Notes: generated by a model not told the origin, from the sequence alone. DNA of 9,133 nt from a virus (IMGVR_UViG_2585427757_000007:1-9133), one strand, 5' to 3'; positions 644 through 8,672 are shown, numbered from the stretch's first letter. A program made the numbers and translations.

Positions 644-1198
644 CTAAGCGTCAGTAAAAGAAAATGCATCTCGCATCAGTGGATACAGAATAAACTCAGC
701 TATTCTCAGCCACATATCTATACGATTGCGGCATGTTGCATAGCACCACTCAGGGTGAACCTCATTCAACAATTCAGCCATTTTGCGTTTACTCATCCCC
801 CGCCCTTCGTACCTTTGCCGCAGGATATCAATCAATCCAGGATAACGTGCAAGCGCTTTACTTATCACCCCATCAATGCGTAACGCCTCTGCATCAGTAC
901 AGTGAGACAACCAGCTCTTCTGTCTGCCAGCGATCATCTCTCGCAAGAATGCTTCCAGCTCTGGTTTATCAATCCCTGACTCCCTGATTCTACGCAGAGC
1001 TTCATTGACCGCGGTTTTTGTCAGTTTTTTGGATGCCAGCAACTGATTGAACATATTTCCTGGTTTGCCACCACCTATATACGACCAACGCCCCCACATC
1101 CGTAATTTTCCCTGGATCCAGACGGCTTCCAGCGTTTTTAGACGTAAATGCTCGCCGCTTTTACCTGTAATTTCCGGGTATATCATATTTACGATCAC
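644..1198 (-). CDS. Putative late-gene antiterminator (Q-like) protein, 184 aa; family not identified
   Basis: Sits directly downstream of rusA with a GTGA start/stop overlap (1195-1198) and is followed by a non-coding stretch ending in a hairpin plus U-tract, as expected for a Q/PR'/tR' arrangement. No lambda-Q-type CxxC zinc ribbon was recognised, so the function is inferred from position. Confidence 0.5.
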   Translation of the reverse strand: MIVNMIYPEITGKSGEHLRLKTLEAVWIQGKLRMWGRWSYIGGGKPGNMFNQLLASKKLTKTAVNEALRRIRESGIDKPELEAFLREMIAGRQKSWLSHCTDAEALRIDGVISKALARYPGLIDILRQRYEGRGMSKRKMAELLNEVHPEWCYATCRNRIDMWLRIAEFILYPLMRDAFSFTDA

Positions 1199-1560
1199 TC
1201 ACTCTCAATTTTGTAAATCTTCACGCCCAGCCGCCCCCCAGGAACGCGCTGACCGCGCACAATATTGATTTCATCAAACTGCTCGTCGTCTATGAGAAGT
1301 CCGGCATGCGTCAGCGCATCCAGTGGTGCTTTCAGGATATTGTCCAGGTCGCGACGACGTTTATCCGGTGGCTCTGCAATAATCTTTATCGCCAGCCTTC
1401 CGGACAGGTTTAATTTCAGCCGCTGCTGGCGAACAATAAGCGCCACATCACGGCGATAACGCTCACCGGCTTTTGATACAAAATATGTGCTGCCACGACG
1501 TCGCCAGTAAGTGTTCACCGTTGGCGGGTAAGGCAAAACAAATTCTATGCGTTCAGTCAT
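1195..1560 (-). CDS. rusA: RusA-family Holliday junction resolvase (crossover junction endodeoxyribonuclease)
   Basis: The 121-aa product (MTERIEFVLPYPPTVNTYWRR...DKRRRDLDNILKAPLDALTHAGLLIDDEQ...) matches the RusA pattern, including the acidic DLDN block; size and position (before the Q-like gene) are typical. SD GGAAAG lies upstream of ATG 1560. Confidence 0.9.
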   Translation of the reverse strand: MTERIEFVLPYPPTVNTYWRRRGSTYFVSKAGERYRRDVALIVRQQRLKLNLSGRLAIKIIAEPPDKRRRDLDNILKAPLDALTHAGLLIDDEQFDEINIVRGQRVPGGRLGVKIYKIESE

Positions 1561-2619
1561 TCATGCTTTCCACTTCAGGACACCCGAATTTCTCGCGTGC
1601 ATTAAAAAACGAATCAGCAACAACAGCTGGCTGCCGTGTTTTTCTTCAAAATCTTTTACCCCGGCGTGTAGTTCGCTATGGCATTTACGGCACAGCGGAA
1701 TAACAAACAAATCATCAGCCTTTGTTCCCATCCCTCCCAGTCCATGACCAATGATGTGATGCGGATCATCTGCCTGATTGCCACACGTCATGCATTTCTG
1801 CGTTTTTACCCAGCGCGTGTATACAGGCATCTCTTCCCGTTGTGGTTTCTGGCGCTGGAGATACTGAGCCGGTGACTCCGGATCAACGGCAATGCTGACC
1901 ACCGTCTTTTCCTGTGGTGGATTCTGTTGCTGGTGGGCGTGAGGCAACGGCGCAATATTTTTTGTGCGCTGCTTCAGTATGCTGATGGCGGTCTGCTCTC
2001 CCGGTACGATGTCGCTCTCGCGGTATACTGAGCGGATTTTTTCACTCGGAAGCTTCAGGATTCGACGCGCCATATTTTCGGTCATGGCATCCACTACATC
2101 ATTTACAGAAGCCCAGCAGCACAATTCAGCCAGCGATAATTCCCGCTCCTGCGTGCCATTCACTGCATGGCGTATGACGTCAATCATCCATGCTGACAGG
2201 TTTTGATGAGCAAGTTGCCCGAGTGATTCGGAGGTCTGGTCACGCAGCTGGTTGTCGCAGTGCCAGCACAACACCATCGCGCCGGTACCGTAACGATGTA
2301 TGACGATTTCACTGTGATGATAGTCACCATGAGGCCACTGGCAGGATTTAACGTGGCGTAACAGCCAGTCAAACAGCGCACCAGCACCGCCAGCAGCACG
2401 AATCACCCGCTCATCGCTGAAAAATGGCAGTAGTGATTTATCCTCCGCCAATGGCTGGCGAACGGCAGGAACGACTCCGGACGGCAGACCGCGCATGCTT
2501 TTCGGTTCCGGCTCCACCAGTACACGACCGCTGCGGAATACCTGCATGGATTCACGACCAGGCTTAAGGACCACCAGCCCAAGTTCCGGTACCGGAACAG
2601 ATCGAAGTAATACCCGCAC
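1561..2619 (-). CDS. YdfU/DUF968-like prophage protein with C-terminal HNH-like Cys/His motif (352 aa)
   Basis: GTG start at 2619 with a strong SD GGAGG 5 nt upstream. The C-terminal block CMTCGNQADDPHHIIGHGLGG...LFVIPLCRKCHSELH (aa 276-318, nt 1666-1794) resembles an HNH/zinc-binding motif. Size and location match Qin ydfU as I recall. Confidence 0.75.
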   Translation of the reverse strand: MRVLLRSVPVPELGLVVLKPGRESMQVFRSGRVLVEPEPKSMRGLPSGVVPAVRQPLAEDKSLLPFFSDERVIRAAGGAGALFDWLLRHVKSCQWPHGDYHHSEIVIHRYGTGAMVLCWHCDNQLRDQTSESLGQLAHQNLSAWMIDVIRHAVNGTQERELSLAELCCWASVNDVVDAMTENMARRILKLPSEKIRSVYRESDIVPGEQTAISILKQRTKNIAPLPHAHQQQNPPQEKTVVSIAVDPESPAQYLQRQKPQREEMPVYTRWVKTQKCMTCGNQADDPHHIIGHGLGGMGTKADDLFVIPLCRKCHSELHAGVKDFEEKHGSQLLLLIRFLMHARNSGVLKWKA

Positions 2620-3445: not shown

Positions 3446-3601
3446 TTACTCTCTAGATTCGTAGTCTACGAAAACAGCAACCTCCATCTGGCCGGTTCGG
3501 ATTCGTACCTCGCAGAGGTCTTTCCTCGTTACCAGTGCCGTCACTATGACGGTTAAACAGATGACGATCAGGGCGATTAACATCGCCTTTTGCTGCTTCA
3601 T
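3446..3601 (-). CDS. hok: Hok/Gef-family type I toxin (HokD/RelF-like), 51 aa
   Basis: Product MKQQKAMLIALIVICLTVIVTALVTRKDLCEVRIRTGQMEVAVFVDYESRE: a single transmembrane helix plus the conserved C..R.....E.A.F...E tail, near-identical over about 38 residues to E. coli HokD as I recall it. ATG at 3601..3599 with SD AAGGAG about 9 nt upstream. The track ORF 3446..3628 begins at an upstream GTG that I consider less likely. Confidence 0.9.
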   Translation of the reverse strand: MKQQKAMLIALIVICLTVIVTALVTRKDLCEVRIRTGQMEVAVFVDYESRE

Positions 3602-3659
3602 AGCCTGCTTCTCCTTGCCTTTCGGCACGTAAGAGGCTAATCTTCAGTTGTCGAGACAT
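3453..3659 (-). CDS. mok: mok-like overlapping reading frame (modulator of killing), about 68 aa
   Basis: An alternative frame overlaps nearly all of hok and starts at ATG 3659..3657, about 58 nt upstream of the hok start, as in canonical hok/mok/sok loci. The track ORF 3453..3758 is the longest form; the shorter start is an inference. Confidence 0.45.
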   Translation of the reverse strand: MSRQLKISLLRAERQGEAGYEAAKGDVNRPDRHLFNRHSDGTGNEERPLRGTNPNRPDGGCCFRRLRI

Positions 3660-3877
3660 AAGACTGGCCTCACTTCGATTTATAGTCGGGTGGGGCTTTT
3701 CTCTATCTGCCTTTTGGTGTTCATGCCTGAGACAGATAGCCTCAAGCACCCGCAGCAATTCTACTTATGACGCAATTTAATGACAACAACTCTACAGCGG
3801 TAGTGTGTTTAACTATTGACATTGATTAACTCATTATTCAAAATTTTTGCGTACGCATTAATGATTTTGTGTCGTTG

Positions 3878-3900
3878 TTGTGATGGTAAAAAAATCACAA
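3878..3900. promoter_or_regulatory. Perfect dyad TTGTGAT-N9-ATCACAA overlapping a TGgTAAAAA extended -10-like element about 35 nt upstream of gene A
   Basis: TTGTGAT at 3878-3884 and ATCACAA at 3894-3900 are exact reverse complements. The spacer contains TG at 3884-3885 followed by TAAAAA at 3887-3892. Candidate operator and promoter for the A-B operon. Confidence 0.35.
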
Positions 3901-3934
3901 ACGATCTAACAATAACATAGGTGATATTTTCAAT

Positions 3935-5077
3935 ATGGAAATTAAGCAAGTTATCGTTCATGAACTAATTAAAGAAGCAAAAAAGGATTTTGATTTTTCT
4001 AAGCCGTATCAGCTTAGATCCACTCCTCTCGATAAAACCAATCCAATTGTTATAAAACTTATTCAAGACATTTCATCTTTATATGGAACCAAAGGCAATT
4101 CTGCACATTATGGCGTTTTTAAAGAGGAGAAAACAGAACAAGGGCCTGTGCCATCAATATTTGAAGAGTATTCTCAGTCAGAGGATAACATTAATGAAAA
4201 GTTTGTGCCTTTTTCTATTGAAGTGATGAAGCAACTTGTAAAAAAAGCCAAAGAAGAACCTTGGTCATCTGGTGGTTTTATTGTGTTTTGTGACTATATT
4301 GTAAATAACAATAAATTCTTTTTAATTGCAATGATTAAAAAGAAAAATGGTGTTACTATCAGCAACAAACTCGAACCTGAAGAAATGATCCATTTGGATC
4401 TATCCAAAATACACCAAGCAGCAAGAATAAATTTCAATCTCTACCAACAATATAAAACTGCTGATGAGTCTGAAAAAATTGACTTAAGTTATCTAAGTTT
4501 CGTAAGTAAAGGAGTGGGTCAATCCACATCAGCATATTTTATTGCAGCAATAGGATGCGACAAATCACTTGCAGCAGCAAAAGCCACAAAAAAACTACCA
4601 ACTGTCGCAAAACAATTTTTTAACCAAAAACCAGAACTTAAAGCATGTGCCAATAGATTTAAACATGACGTTATTGCATATTTAGACACACAAGCAGCTA
4701 AAAATTTATCAGCCCGATTGAGTGATATTGAAGTAATTGCAGCACGTCACATGACAAATTTAGATGAGTCTACCAAAGAATCTTACACTCACGAATTAAT
4801 TCTTTTTTTAAATAGTGAAAATGTGAGAATCCCAACTGAATTTGTTATCAGTAAACGGGCGTTGAAAGACATTAAAAACATCACCTTTAAGACTGATGAG
4901 ATTGGATTTAATTTTGACAAGTCTCTCCTTGGAGTGACAGCTGATGATGATGTGTGGTACGATGAAACAACTGGAAGATTATCATTTACAAACTTACCAG
5001 CTGAATTTAAGGCTAAACTAAGCGCTGTGGTAAAAGAAAATTTAAAAATAAGGGATAGTGGAAAAGAAAATGGCTAA
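3935..5077 (+). CDS. Nucleoid-associated protein YejK/NdpA (NA37 family) homologue, divergent, 380 aa (gene A)
   Basis: ATG 3935 with SD AGGTGA upstream. Several blocks align with E. coli YejK as I recall it: IVHELIK vs IALHQLIK; LYGTKGNSAHYGVFKEE vs VYSAKNKAYGLFSEE; GGFIVFCDY vs GGFVLFCHY; FNFDKSLLG...VWYDETTGRLSF vs INFDAMLLG...IFWDPATDTLTI. The gene is about 30% GC, unlike the flanking backbone. Confidence 0.85.
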   Translation: MEIKQVIVHELIKEAKKDFDFSKPYQLRSTPLDKTNPIVIKLIQDISSLYGTKGNSAHYGVFKEEKTEQGPVPSIFEEYSQSEDNINEKFVPFSIEVMKQLVKKAKEEPWSSGGFIVFCDYIVNNNKFFLIAMIKKKNGVTISNKLEPEEMIHLDLSKIHQAARINFNLYQQYKTADESEKIDLSYLSFVSKGVGQSTSAYFIAAIGCDKSLAAAKATKKLPTVAKQFFNQKPELKACANRFKHDVIAYLDTQAAKNLSARLSDIEVIAARHMTNLDESTKESYTHELILFLNSENVRIPTEFVISKRALKDIKNITFKTDEIGFNFDKSLLGVTADDDVWYDETTGRLSFTNLPAEFKAKLSAVVKENLKIRDSGKENG

Positions 5078-6290
5078 TTTATCAACGGTTGTAGATTTTT
5101 ATAGAGCATCATCGAAGCCCCAATTCGACGGACGTTCTTTTTCTGCAACTGTTGAAATAAATAATAACAATCAACGTTTGGTAAACTTGTTAGTAAATTC
5201 ACATAAAGCCTACGGTTATTTTGAAGATGTTGATATTAATAATGAGTTCATTGACGAAGACGATTTAAAATCACACCCAATTAAAATTGGAGATAAATTC
5301 TCATACACTTACATATCCCCTAAAAATGGAGCAGAACGTTTCTATAACTCAATTCAAGAGTTCCTTTGTATAAACTCACTCAAGAAAGGTGTAATTCCTA
5401 AAGAGTATTACATAATCGATGAGGATTTTCATCCGTCTGATTCAAGTAAACCGGACGAAATTATAAAAATCGAGAAAATTTGTGCAATTATTTCTTCCCT
5501 GGCTGAGATTGCGCACTTTCACGATACAAAATCGGAATCTTCAAATTATCGTTTAGTTTTCGTGAAAGATTCTGACGCAAAATCAACATCTATTATTTTA
5601 GAAACGTGCATTACACCTAAGATGCTCAATATAAATGACATTGATGATGCTATCATCAAGAGTCTTTTAGATGTAAAAAACGCCCAAATCCCCCATCAAG
5701 CAGAAAAAACAGGTATTTTCAGGAATACCATAGTGGAGTTTATTCTCGATAACAAATATGATTTTGAAAACCTAATTTGCCATTGGGATAAATTTGTAAA
5801 GCTATTTGAAAATAATTTATCCACGTATATGAGTGGTTTTTCATTCCATAAGGCACGAAAAGAAATTGCGAAGTCTGAAGCAGAGTTTGCTGAAAAAATC
5901 TCAAAACTTATTACTGATTTGACGACAAAAGTATTATCAATCCCTGTGTCTTTACTGGCATCCTTCGGGATTATAAAACTAACATCAAGATCTGAAATGT
6001 TACTCGTTTTATTAGGTGTATTGTTAAGCTCACTTATTTTATATATGGTATTACTCAATCAGGATAAACAATTAAAACATATTTACCATGCTAAAGATAT
6101 AGCATTTATGCCTTTTCTAAAAAACAATGAAAATTATCCAGAAGACCTTAAGAAGGACATTAATGAGGCTCTATATGAACTATCAAAGAGCCAAACCAAA
6201 TGTGATAATACAATAAAGTTATTTATGTATTTGGCTTGGCTACCAAGTTCTATTGCAGCAGGAATATTTCTTGCGAAGATTTTTATTTAG
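5070..6290 (+). CDS. Membrane-anchored protein of unknown function (gene B); about 300-aa soluble N-terminal region plus C-terminal hydrophobic helices
   Basis: Preferred start is ATG 5070 (MANLSTV...), which overlaps the gene A stop (5075-5077) by 8 nt; the track ORF begins at GTG 5058. Hydrophobic segments (track numbering): VLSIPVSLLASFGIIKL (about 292-308), MLLVLLGVLLSSLILYMVLL (314-333) and LFMYLAWLPSSIAAGIFLAKIFI (388-410). AT-rich; no known motif recognised. Confidence 0.8.
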   Translation: MANLSTVVDFYRASSKPQFDGRSFSATVEINNNNQRLVNLLVNSHKAYGYFEDVDINNEFIDEDDLKSHPIKIGDKFSYTYISPKNGAERFYNSIQEFLCINSLKKGVIPKEYYIIDEDFHPSDSSKPDEIIKIEKICAIISSLAEIAHFHDTKSESSNYRLVFVKDSDAKSTSIILETCITPKMLNINDIDDAIIKSLLDVKNAQIPHQAEKTGIFRNTIVEFILDNKYDFENLICHWDKFVKLFENNLSTYMSGFSFHKARKEIAKSEAEFAEKISKLITDLTTKVLSIPVSLLASFGIIKLTSRSEMLLVLLGVLLSSLILYMVLLNQDKQLKHIYHAKDIAFMPFLKNNENYPEDLKKDINEALYELSKSQTKCDNTIKLFMYLAWLPSSIAAGIFLAKIFI

Positions 6291-6306
6291 CTCTAACAGT
6301 TAGAGC
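6290..6306. other. Short palindrome between convergent genes B and C; weak candidate bidirectional terminator
   Basis: GCTCTAA (6290-6296) / TTAGAGC (6300-6306) with loop CAG. It contains the last base of the B stop codon (TAG 6288-6290) and the whole C stop codon (TAA on the minus strand, 6300-6302). The stem is AT-rich and lacks a clear U-tract on either side. Confidence 0.3.
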
Positions 6307-6815
6307 ATTAATACTCCCTCCAATACTCCCATCGCTGCTTGTATTTTTTTTCTAATAGTCCCATCCGCACATTTCTTTCTTTTTGCGATCTTTCTCAAAG
6401 AAACGCCTATTACAAAGTGGGCAACAATTAACTCATATTCATCTATTTTATATTGTCTGAGTCTCAATATCCACTCATCAATCACTCGCCCTTCATCATC
6501 GCGGCTCTGGCGACGCAATTTTTTACCATGAGGCACAACATCTTTATATTTATCAGCCACTTGCTGCCAGTTGATAGAACTATTTCCAGCTACAGCCCAA
6601 GCTCCCCAACAGTCCAAAATATCATATATATTAGCATTGCTATCTACCTGTTTTTTATATTCTTTTTTGAAGCGAGCAAGAAGCATCCTGGCCATCGTTA
6701 TTATTTCTATACTTGTAACTGATTCATAAGCATCAGGAGAAATAATCCTCCCATCACTTAATGCCCTTTCACTAAGATTTGCTATTTCCAATAATCGTTC
6801 TTTAGTTATTTCCAT
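6300..6815 (-). CDS. Q933/QuuD-family (PF06530-type) antiterminator-like protein with about 60-aa N-terminal extension (gene C), 171 aa
   Basis: Preferred start is ATG 6815..6813 with SD GGAG 7 nt upstream; the track ORF starts at GTG 6827. It shares a WGAWA motif and the C-terminal block ELIVAHFVIGVSLRKIAKRKKCADGTIRKKIQAAMGVLEGVLML with the DLP12/933W-type Q protein as I recall it (...LLVDYYVVGMTF...CSDGYIGKRLQKAEGIIEGMLMAL); this region also resembles a sigma-70 region-4 HTH. About 38-40% GC. Confidence 0.7.
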   Translation of the reverse strand: MEITKERLLEIANLSERALSDGRIISPDAYESVTSIEIITMARMLLARFKKEYKKQVDSNANIYDILDCWGAWAVAGNSSINWQQVADKYKDVVPHGKKLRRQSRDDEGRVIDEWILRLRQYKIDEYELIVAHFVIGVSLRKIAKRKKCADGTIRKKIQAAMGVLEGVLML

Positions 6816-6826
6816 TATTATCTCCA

Positions 6827-6842
6827 CCGCCCTTTCGGGCGG
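6827..6842 (-). other. GC-rich hairpin immediately upstream of the gene C ribosome-binding site
   Basis: CCGCCC (6827-6832) / GGGCGG (6837-6842), a perfect 6-bp GC stem; on the minus strand the loop is GAAA (a GNRA-type tetraloop). No U-tract follows on either strand, so it is not a classical terminator. It abuts the SD of gene C. Confidence 0.4.
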
Positions 6843-6929: not shown

Positions 6930-7205
6930 TTATGCTTTCTCTTCACTCCGGTATACAAGAATTACAACGTCACCTCTGCTAATCACGCGAGCTGGCTCTC
7001 CTGGTTCTATACTGTCAATATCGAAGGTCTCAAAAAACGCATTCATTGCCTTCTGCCGCTGCGTCTGTTTACAGCGTTTATTCCATTCTTTCAGTAACAT
7101 CAGTGACAGCCACCGCCATGAGCAGAACATGATGTAGCACCAACCAAGAAGCGCCAGCCCCGTATTGAGGGCCGTACCAATCGTCATTGTTGCGTCGATA
7201 TTCAC
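6930..7205 (-). CDS. Small hypothetical membrane protein (91 aa)
   Basis: GTG start at 7205 preceded by a strong SD AGGAGGAGG; the start overlaps the stop of the upstream gene (GTGA at 7202-7205). Hydrophobic stretch IGTALNTGLALLGWCYIMFCSWRWLSLMLL. Confidence 0.6.
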   Translation of the reverse strand: MNIDATMTIGTALNTGLALLGWCYIMFCSWRWLSLMLLKEWNKRCKQTQRQKAMNAFFETFDIDSIEPGEPARVISRGDVVILVYRSEEKA

Positions 7206-7498
7206 TGTACCTCCTCCTGGAAAATAACTGCATGCCCCAGTTTCTCCGCCAGCGCCAGTTCTGCCTTAGCGCCTGCTGACCGCTGCCAGCCTTTCAGCAT
7301 GTAAATCGCATCCACACAACGAATCATTGCCATGCAAATATCCATGTAGTGCGGCTGTGTCAGCCCGTCCGGAAGCACAGCCGGATTTAAAACGGTATGC
7401 CCTTCCCGTTTCAGTTCCTCTTCTGCCTTGTGAAACGCCTCACGGTTGAAATTTTCATACCCCGTCATTGGACCGGCGATATAAACCCTCACCCTCAC
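7202..7498 (-). CDS. DUF4406 / nucleoside 2-deoxyribosyltransferase-like small protein (98 aa)
   Basis: N-terminal VYIAGPMTG motif typical of this fold. GTG start at 7498 preceded by SD AGGAGG (spacing about 7); GTGA overlap with the upstream stop. Confidence 0.6.
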   Translation of the reverse strand: MRVRVYIAGPMTGYENFNREAFHKAEEELKREGHTVLNPAVLPDGLTQPHYMDICMAMIRCVDAIYMLKGWQRSAGAKAELALAEKLGHAVIFQEEVQ

Positions 7499-7925: not shown

Positions 7926-8672
7926 TTACTTCACAACCCTCAGGTGTCTGACATTCGAACGCCAGCTCTCCCAGTTAAAATTCACCCAGCGACCACCGTT
8001 CATGACCATGCGGTCCATCACACGCTCGCCAAGAAGCGTACTCATCGCTACGTGGTTCAGGTTCGTCAGCATTCCGACACTACGCATCGAAGCCGTTCTG
8101 CGGTCGACTATCTGGTTCAGTGTGACCTGCTCGTTGCGCGTATCCCGCTGCATTCCGATTTCATCCAGGACAAGCAGGTCAACATCACACAACCCCTGTA
8201 AAAATTTTTCGCCTGAGTTTTTATTGTCGTAGCTGTTGTGTAACGCCAGCATCACATCAGCCACCGTTATCACAATCACGCTGCGACCTTTCGCCAGAAG
8301 ATGATTGCCAATGGCGGCTGCAAGGTGGTTCTTTCCGGTACCCGGCTTACCGCTGAACACAAAATTCGTGCACCCGGTCATCAGTTCGTCAGCGATGGAT
8401 TTTGCCTGGCTCAGCGCATGTTTTTGCCCGTCGTTCTGCACCTGATAATTCGCAAACGAGCATTTGCTGTGCAGAGGCTGGATGCCCGAACGATTCAGGA
8501 TTTTTTCCACCCGCAACTGGCGATTCTGGCGGTTGATCTCCTCGCTACGTTTTCGCCCTTCAGCCAGTTGCCACTCGCGCCACTCATCCACTGTCCGGTA
8601 CGGCGCGATTACATGCTGCGGGGTCAGCTTACGGATACGCTCAAGAACACCACCTGCCGCGATATTTTTCAT
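7926..8672 (-). CDS. dnaC: DnaC-like replicative helicase loader (IstB-like AAA+ ATPase), prophage copy
   Basis: Walker A FSGKPGTGKNHLAAAIG and Walker B DLLVLDEIG. Similar across the full length to E. coli DnaC as I recall it (RSGIQPLHSKCSFANYQV vs RSGIRPLHQNCSFENYRV; VTLNQIVDRR...GMLTN...LLGERVMDRM). Confidence 0.9.
   Translation of the reverse strand: MKNIAAGGVLERIRKLTPQHVIAPYRTVDEWREWQLAEGRKRSEEINRQNRQLRVEKILNRSGIQPLHSKCSFANYQVQNDGQKHALSQAKSIADELMTGCTNFVFSGKPGTGKNHLAAAIGNHLLAKGRSVIVITVADVMLALHNSYDNKNSGEKFLQGLCDVDLLVLDEIGMQRDTRNEQVTLNQIVDRRTASMRSVGMLTNLNHVAMSTLLGERVMDRMVMNGGRWVNFNWESWRSNVRHLRVVK

Follow-up and report, generated by a model that had tools for sequence, protein, structure and literature searches.

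A nucleoid-associated protein gene and its membrane-anchored partner form a probable two-gene anti-phage module in a lambdoid prophage of Escherichia coli

We analysed a 9,133-nucleotide (nt) stretch of viral DNA, IMGVR_UViG_2585427757_000007:1-9133, referred to here in its whole length as the window. It is part of a lambdoid (Qin/Rac-like) Escherichia coli prophage and is 100 % identical to strain 602354 (NZ_CP025847), in which the prophage integration site adjoins potC. Most genes in the window lie on the minus strand, including replication genes, DUF4406, a Q-family antiterminator, hokD/sok, DUF968, RusA and a DUF1133 antiterminator. This series is broken by two plus-strand genes, gene A and gene B, which run antisense to the prophage genes. 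Gene A encodes a nucleoid-associated protein (NAP) of the NA37/YejK type and gene B a putative membrane protein, which a preliminary description made from the sequence had treated as a stand-alone orphan. The results given below indicate that the two genes probably form an anti-phage abortive-infection module composed of a NAP and a membrane protein, related to the DS-1 family and sharing the architecture of type II PANGU systems, which the lambdoid prophage carries as an accessory 'moron'. The features on which the argument depends are as follows, with positions counted from the first letter of the window and amino acids (aa) from the first residue of gene B.

3935..5077, plus strand: gene A, NA37/YejK-like nucleoid-associated protein of 380 aa (PF04245, phrog_3767, PDB 9be2).
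5070..6290, plus strand: gene B, putative membrane-anchored partner protein of 406 aa (Pag2B-like / DS-1B-like), start codon ATG 5070.
5070..5915, plus strand: N-terminal region of gene B, predicted cytoplasmic, aa 1-282; an alpha/beta domain (aa 1-~235), then the start of a long helix.
5811..5861, plus strand: the most conserved motif of the gene B family, NNLSTYMSGFSFHKARK, aa 248-264; juxtamembrane, within helix 239-288.
5925..6062, plus strand: hydrophobic helical hairpin of gene B, with predicted transmembrane (TM) helices TM1 (~aa 286-304) and TM2 (~aa 309-331) and a 4-residue turn; from hydropathy, AlphaFold2 and alignment.
6219..6287, plus strand: C-terminal hydrophobic helix TM3 of gene B, ~aa 384-406; from hydropathy, AlphaFold2 and alignment.
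3750..6830, no strand: low-GC island (GC content 0.32-0.37, versus ~0.50 in the prophage flanks), containing gene A, gene B and a convergent Q-family gene.

The gene B open reading frame (ORF) is present and intact on the plus strand at 5058-6290, the span first ascribed to it. Its start had been left as either GTG 5058 or ATG 5070, both of which do overlap the end of gene A, and this ambiguity can now be settled as ATG 5070. The N-termini of 46 homologues align from 'MANLSTV/MANFSTV', which rules out GTG 5058, and the start assigned by PGAP is identical (WP_001460783.1). Initiation at ATG 5070 gives an 8-nt overlap, ATGGCTAA, with the stop codon of gene A (5077), and the same overlap is found in Dickeya and in Klebsiella phage P7641.

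Gene A matches Pfam PF04245 (2e-51) and phrog_3767 (3e-73), as well as the solved structure of YejK (PDB 9be2, 3e-14). It shares the fold family of chromosomal YejK (NA37) across its entire length, and its score against the NCBIfam YejK model, 139 bits, is under the 341-bit equivalog cut-off. It differs from chromosomal YejK in its location, a mobile island of low GC, and in its invariable coupling to gene B, and we therefore regard it as a repurposed paralogue rather than the housekeeping YejK.

Gene B has the layout that had been described for it. Its N-terminal region is rich in D, E, K and N (7.9, 7.6, 10.0 and 7.2 %, respectively, over residues 1-290), and three hydrophobic segments lie in the last ~120 aa when the protein is scanned by the Kyte-Doolittle method in 19-residue windows (nt 5931-5987, 1.68; 6000-6056, 2.83; 6231-6287, 1.78). 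These segments exceed chance, because family-wide peaks fall at the same positions: in an alignment of 177 full-length homologues, mean hydropathy rises above 1.0 at three peaks only, at aa 288-302, 311-325 and 387-401 (ATG numbering). In an AlphaFold2 model of gene B (predicted local distance difference test, pLDDT, 86.3) the hydrophobic segments are helical, with helices 290-303 and 307-351 folded into a tight hairpin that follows a helix of 50 residues, and helix 391-405 at the C-terminus. The assignment of membrane helices is thus based on hydropathy, the family alignment and the AlphaFold2 model. The N-terminal region is acidic, with an isoelectric point of 5.4, a net charge of -9 and acidic stretches at aa 52-66 and 113-130, and the C-terminal part is basic. 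Across the 177 homologues the charge of the N-terminal domain has a median of -0.040 per residue and is negative over the 5th-95th percentile.

Conservation within the family is highest in the motif NNLSTYMSGFSFHKARK, whose invariant columns are N249, Y253, F257, F259, H260 and K261, followed by the invariant P292 and G316 in the hairpin. The pattern Y[ML]S[GA]F[SN]FHK, which lies within this motif, was also among the conserved patterns picked by the related-locus search.

No enzymatic or known pore-forming domain was found in gene B. A sequence search of the PDB with the gene B family profile gave nothing below E 0.3, Foldseek against BFVD gave no match at E<=0.001, and the N-terminal domain had no close match among the solved structures in the PDB; a structure search with the whole protein recovered generic helical hairpins only. 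Gene B did not match any holin, spanin, SieB or Imm family, and its 46 homologues yielded a single, insignificant SieB match (E 0.026). Identity as a holin, lysis or structural protein was also considered and found no support. Gene B has no Pfam match, and PHROGs returned phrog_5023 only.

The label of orphan is wrong for gene B. When 1.84 billion protein representatives were scanned exhaustively with HMMER, 651 cluster representatives matched its family at E<=1e-3 and 118 at E<=1e-30. Full-length relatives in Enterobacterales number 47, at 33-99 % identity, and tblastn of phage records gave a single full-length match, in Klebsiella phage P7641. The view that the protein has no recognisable domain held for Pfam, in which gene B has no match and its 46 homologues show nothing consistent, and for PADLOC v2. 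It did not hold for PHROGs, where the sole match is phrog_5023 (7e-70; function unknown there), or for NCBIfam release 20, where the match is NF053869. Along with these two families, the remote homology search that had been suggested as a check revealed a relationship to DS-1B, the second protein of a known defence operon.

We then examined the genes next to gene B in 31 loci from E. coli, Shigella, Xenorhabdus, Dickeya, Pectobacterium, Proteus, Providencia, Ewingella, Pantoea, Pseudomonas and Vibrio. All 31 have an NA37 gene immediately before gene B and in the same orientation. The spacing between the two genes ranges from -26 to +39 nt in 22 distinct intact pairs, and the A and B proteins co-diverge, their distance matrices giving a Mantel r of 0.94 that was reached by 0 of 2000 permutations. 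The functional unit is A+B, with gene B obligately paired with gene A; the stand-alone status first given to gene B does not survive this result, and both genes match NCBIfam DS-1 models. Apart from one locus, the gene B family was seen in Gammaproteobacteria only. That locus is on a 330-kb contig of a metagenome-assembled genome labelled Candidatus Moraniibacteriota and holds an intact NA37 and gene B pair at 31 % identity, which could reflect horizontal transfer or a binning error.

Decayed copies of the pair also occur. The NA37 gene is split in Serratia marcescens (L033), in Shigella flexneri (L020) and in a Pantoea stink-bug symbiont (L028); L020, L028 and two Pseudomonas loci (L025/L026) have a fragmented gene B. 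In the Serratia locus, gene B is intact next to an NA37 gene split in two.

DS-1 is an E. coli operon cloned in the DefensePredictor study, in which NAP WP_000355468.1 (DS-1A) is encoded together with a 404-aa protein, WP_000150292.1 (DS-1B); in MG1655 it lowered plating of Bas1 by 7.6 logs, of Bas26 by 2.7 and of Bas3 and T3 by 1.7 (Science 2026, PMC13092281, Table S7). Further predicted defence genes listed in that study may be additional members of the pair family, namely WP_016159279.1, a hypothetical protein of 408 aa, and the NAPs WP_120130707.1 and WP_097733593.1; the NAPs listed are 364-382 aa long, and the log-odds of the listed candidates are 9.8-13 (PMC13092281, Table S10).

For comparison with DS-1, the DS-1B sequence was taken from Table S8 of PMC13092281 and models NF053868 and NF053869 from NCBIfam release 20. 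Gene B matches NF053869 (DS1_2_antiphage) with 105.1 bits (E 4.2e-30) over profile positions 31-329 of 337, short of the 315-bit equivalog cut-off, and gene A matches NF053868 (DS1_1_antiphage) with 101.2 bits (E 5.9e-29), short of its cut-off of 330 bits. In the reverse direction, DS-1B matches the gene B family profile with 100 bits (E 6e-33) over positions 69-407 of 410, a nearly full-length homology in which the hydrophobic hairpin and the C-terminal helix are included. Pairwise BLASTP of gene B and DS-1B gave 27 % identity over 162 aa (E 1e-14). The present pair thus has what marks the DS-1 superfamily, homology to DS-1B along its whole length, membrane helices included, and an NA37 gene upstream. 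The two operons also share their gene order, an NA37 protein and then a protein of ~400 aa, and their origin in E. coli accessory DNA. They differ in that identity is just ~27 % for B and ~22 % for A, and in that alignment to DS-1B leaves out the first ~60-90 residues of gene B. Since the homology is significant and the scores reach about one third of the cut-offs, we regard the pair as a clear yet distant relative of DS-1 and not as an equivalog.

A second point of comparison comes from PANGU, a group of NAP-based two-gene systems in which type II consists of a YejK-like protein, Pag2A, and Pag2B, whose acidic N-terminal 'DNA-mimicking' (DMK) domain is followed by a C-terminal TM domain and which is termed the 'effector' (bioRxiv 10.64898/2026.04.06.716658). 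Type II defence needs both genes, no single-gene construct is toxic, and defence against T4 looks abortive, with growth arrest at high multiplicity of infection (bioRxiv 10.64898/2026.04.06.716658). In vitro the N-terminal domain of Pag2B binds Pag2A with a dissociation constant of 19 nM, and upon T4 infection Pag2A-GFP departs from the degraded nucleoid (bioRxiv 10.64898/2026.04.06.716658). Type II operons are bicistronic and pair a YejK-like NAP, at a spacing of <40 bp, with a partner that has a C-terminal TM domain. The genes studied here show the same arrangement in E. coli: their overlap is 8 nt, none of the 22 distinct intact pairs is spaced by more than 39 nt, the N-terminal domain of gene B is acidic, and three conserved hydrophobic helices make up its predicted C-terminal TM region. 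Two differences were apparent. The preprint stresses linkage to defence islands whereas the present pair lies at a prophage moron site, and a 'DNA-mimic' character is only weakly visible in the composition of the gene B N-terminal domain.

A tight, translationally coupled operon with the putative neutraliser first, joined by the 8-nt overlap, together with the co-divergence of the two proteins and the presence next door of another addiction module, hok/sok, might also be expected of a toxin-antitoxin system. Gene B would then encode a membrane toxin active at all times and gene A the antitoxin that restrains it, and the pair would mainly stabilise the prophage, with defence as a by-product at most. 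We consider this very improbable. In type II PANGU neither gene is toxic by itself and both are needed for defence, according to the preprint, and the NAP therefore acts as an activator and not as an antitoxin. The natural disrupted copies point in the same direction: both genes are fragmented in Shigella L020, and the intact gene B beside a split NA37 gene in Serratia marcescens L033 is hard to reconcile with a lethal toxin left unneutralised.

We propose instead that gene A supplies a sensor, like Pag2A or DS-1A, and gene B its membrane-anchored partner, with the hairpin and the terminal helix residing in the inner membrane and the acidic N-terminal cytoplasmic domain serving as the docking site for the YejK-like protein. 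In the uninfected cell the gene A protein would be held on the nucleoid. An infecting phage that degrades host DNA would set it free, and the freed protein would bind the N-terminal domain of gene B. The membrane helices would then change state, by oligomerisation or opening, so that membrane integrity or potential collapses and the infection is aborted. The first three of these steps draw on published work with relatives, which covers defence, the need for both genes, nanomolar binding of the NAP to the N-terminal domain and relocation of the NAP on T4 infection; we infer that these properties carry over to the present, divergent pair. The final step is suggested by the conserved hydrophobic helices and by the absence of an enzymatic domain. 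The layout, in which membrane helices at the C-terminal end follow a soluble N-terminal part, and which had been likened to that of membrane-acting abortive-infection effectors, accordingly stands and agrees with the published defence by DS-1 and abortive infection by type II PANGU, and the membrane disruption that was part of the same suggestion stays an inference.

The roles of the two proteins could also be reversed. The Kiwa system is a two-gene operon that encodes a membrane protein, KwaA, and a DNA-binding protein, KwaB. If the present pair followed a similar logic, gene B would be a membrane sensor of phage adsorption or DNA entry and the NA37 protein an effector that coats or blocks phage DNA, providing direct immunity or a superinfection exclusion that favours the prophage. 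The pairing of an inner-membrane protein with a DNA-binding protein resembles the Kiwa layout, the pair is prophage-borne at a classical moron site, as are many exclusion genes, and neither an enzymatic nor a known pore-forming domain was found in gene B. On balance we find this reading unlikely. Neither protein matches the KwaA or KwaB model in PADLOC-DB v2 at E<=1, the gene order is opposite, the partner is an NA37 protein rather than a DUF4868 protein, and gene B has a large cytoplasmic domain. Just 1 of 46 family members gave a SieB match, which was insignificant. The type II PANGU preprint, moreover, reports a growth arrest at high multiplicity of infection that looks abortive, and a NAP that on infection moves away from DNA and not onto phage DNA.

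Several points weigh against an abortive-infection module that works as we propose. The charge density of the gene B N-terminal domain, -0.03 per residue, is modest in comparison with classical DNA mimics, and gene A lacks the N-terminal zinc-ribbon of DS-1A. As scores against the DS-1 models amount to about a third of the cut-offs (105/315 and 101/330), the relationship is a distant one, and transfer of function over ~27 % identity is not guaranteed. Assignment to type II PANGU, for its part, is by shared architecture only. The PANGU study is a preprint without peer review, and its authors state that activation of Pag2B by Pag2A 'remains to be determined' (bioRxiv 10.64898/2026.04.06.716658). 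Membrane permeabilisation has not been published for any family member. Finally, PADLOC-DB v2 (2023) gave no match for gene A or gene B at E<=1, a result to be expected, because the library predates these systems.

Within a NAP-and-membrane-partner module there is room for a more specific, speculative suggestion. Gene B may represent a new kind of effector, in which an alpha/beta domain that has no relative in the PDB acts as the receptor for the displaced NAP, and the hairpin and terminal helix assemble into a NAP-gated membrane lesion of a kind not described before; or a reversed, Kiwa-like logic may operate in this prophage clade. That one or the other is correct seems rather doubtful to us, and either would set the clade mechanistically apart from the systems in the 2026 papers, which established binding and relocation only.

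Anti-phage systems composed of a NAP and a membrane partner have been known since 2026, and by sequence comparison the present pair is a divergent addition to them. A prophage 'hypothetical protein' can now be read as one of the two components of a recognisable defence module, which should be studied as A+B and not as gene B alone. The gene family would be one of a small number that have turned a nucleoid protein of housekeeping type into a sensor of infection. Because it belongs to a divergent clade, occupies a fixed moron site between Q and the lysis genes in several enterobacterial genera and has a confident structural model, the pair offers a convenient second example for assessing the generality of the mechanism. 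Targets for mutagenesis suggest themselves in the invariant YMSGFSFHK motif, in the hairpin and in the acidic loops.

The genomic setting is that of mobile DNA in every case, either lambdoid prophages or P4-like primase islands. In lambdoid prophages (E. coli, Xenorhabdus, Yersinia, Pantoea and Klebsiella phage P7641) the pair lies between antiterminator Q and the lysis cassette and is antisense to both. The Dickeya and Serratia copies belong to P4-like primase islands, and the Dickeya locus also has an integrase. Just 4 of 5426 complete E. coli genomes carry gene A and gene B; the adjoining hok/sok segment is present in thousands. In the one related prophage compared, different small genes occupy the A-B position. 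The low GC of the pair, its patchy distribution and its antisense orientation are all traits typical of accessory cargo.

Proteins of the YejK type are general DNA-binding proteins. The pair might accordingly serve the prophage itself, for example as a membrane tether for phage or host DNA or as a modulator of nucleoid structure during lysogeny or induction, a role with which the constant proximity to antiterminator Q in prophage loci would agree. We give this possibility very little credence. The same pair is found in P4-like primase islands that have neither Q nor lysis genes, the homologous DS-1, carried on a plasmid and in the absence of a prophage, confers protection, and the three traits of accessory cargo just listed also count against such a role.

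The remaining features of the window, within and around the island, are listed below.

3816..3844, plus strand: promoter-like site, TTGACA-17-CAAAAT, matching 10/12 consensus positions, ~90 nt upstream of gene A.
6300-6827, minus strand: Q-family antiterminator gene (PF06530, 3e-29), low GC, convergent with gene B, with 9 nt between the stop codons.
3446-3628, minus strand: Hok-family ORF (Pfam, 4e-22).
3596-3751, minus strand: sok antisense RNA (Rfam RF01794, 122 bits).
644-1198, minus strand: DUF1133 antiterminator-type gene, further downstream, ahead of the methylase/tRNA/lysis region.
1195-1560, minus strand: RusA resolvase gene (record annotation; ~50 % GC).
1561-2619, minus strand: DUF968 gene (record annotation; ~50 % GC).
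7202-7498, minus strand: DUF4406 gene (record annotation; ~50 % GC).
7926-8672, minus strand: DnaC-like ORF (resemblance by eye; ~50 % GC).

The site at 3816..3844 is a candidate for the A-B operon's own promoter, in a region whose total of promoter-like sites was not above that of shuffled sequences. A terminator scan found none between gene B and the convergent Q gene. The Q gene and the A-B pair may be transferred jointly as a single block, since the pair abuts the Q gene in other prophages too. The prophage has two antiterminator-type genes, the Q-family gene at 6300-6827 and the DUF1133 gene at 644-1198. On its other side the island adjoins a complete hok/sok type I toxin-antitoxin locus (3446-3751, minus strand), and its left edge begins right after sok. 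The DUF968, RusA, DUF4406 and DnaC-like ORFs are ordinary lambdoid cargo in the opposite orientation to the A-B pair.

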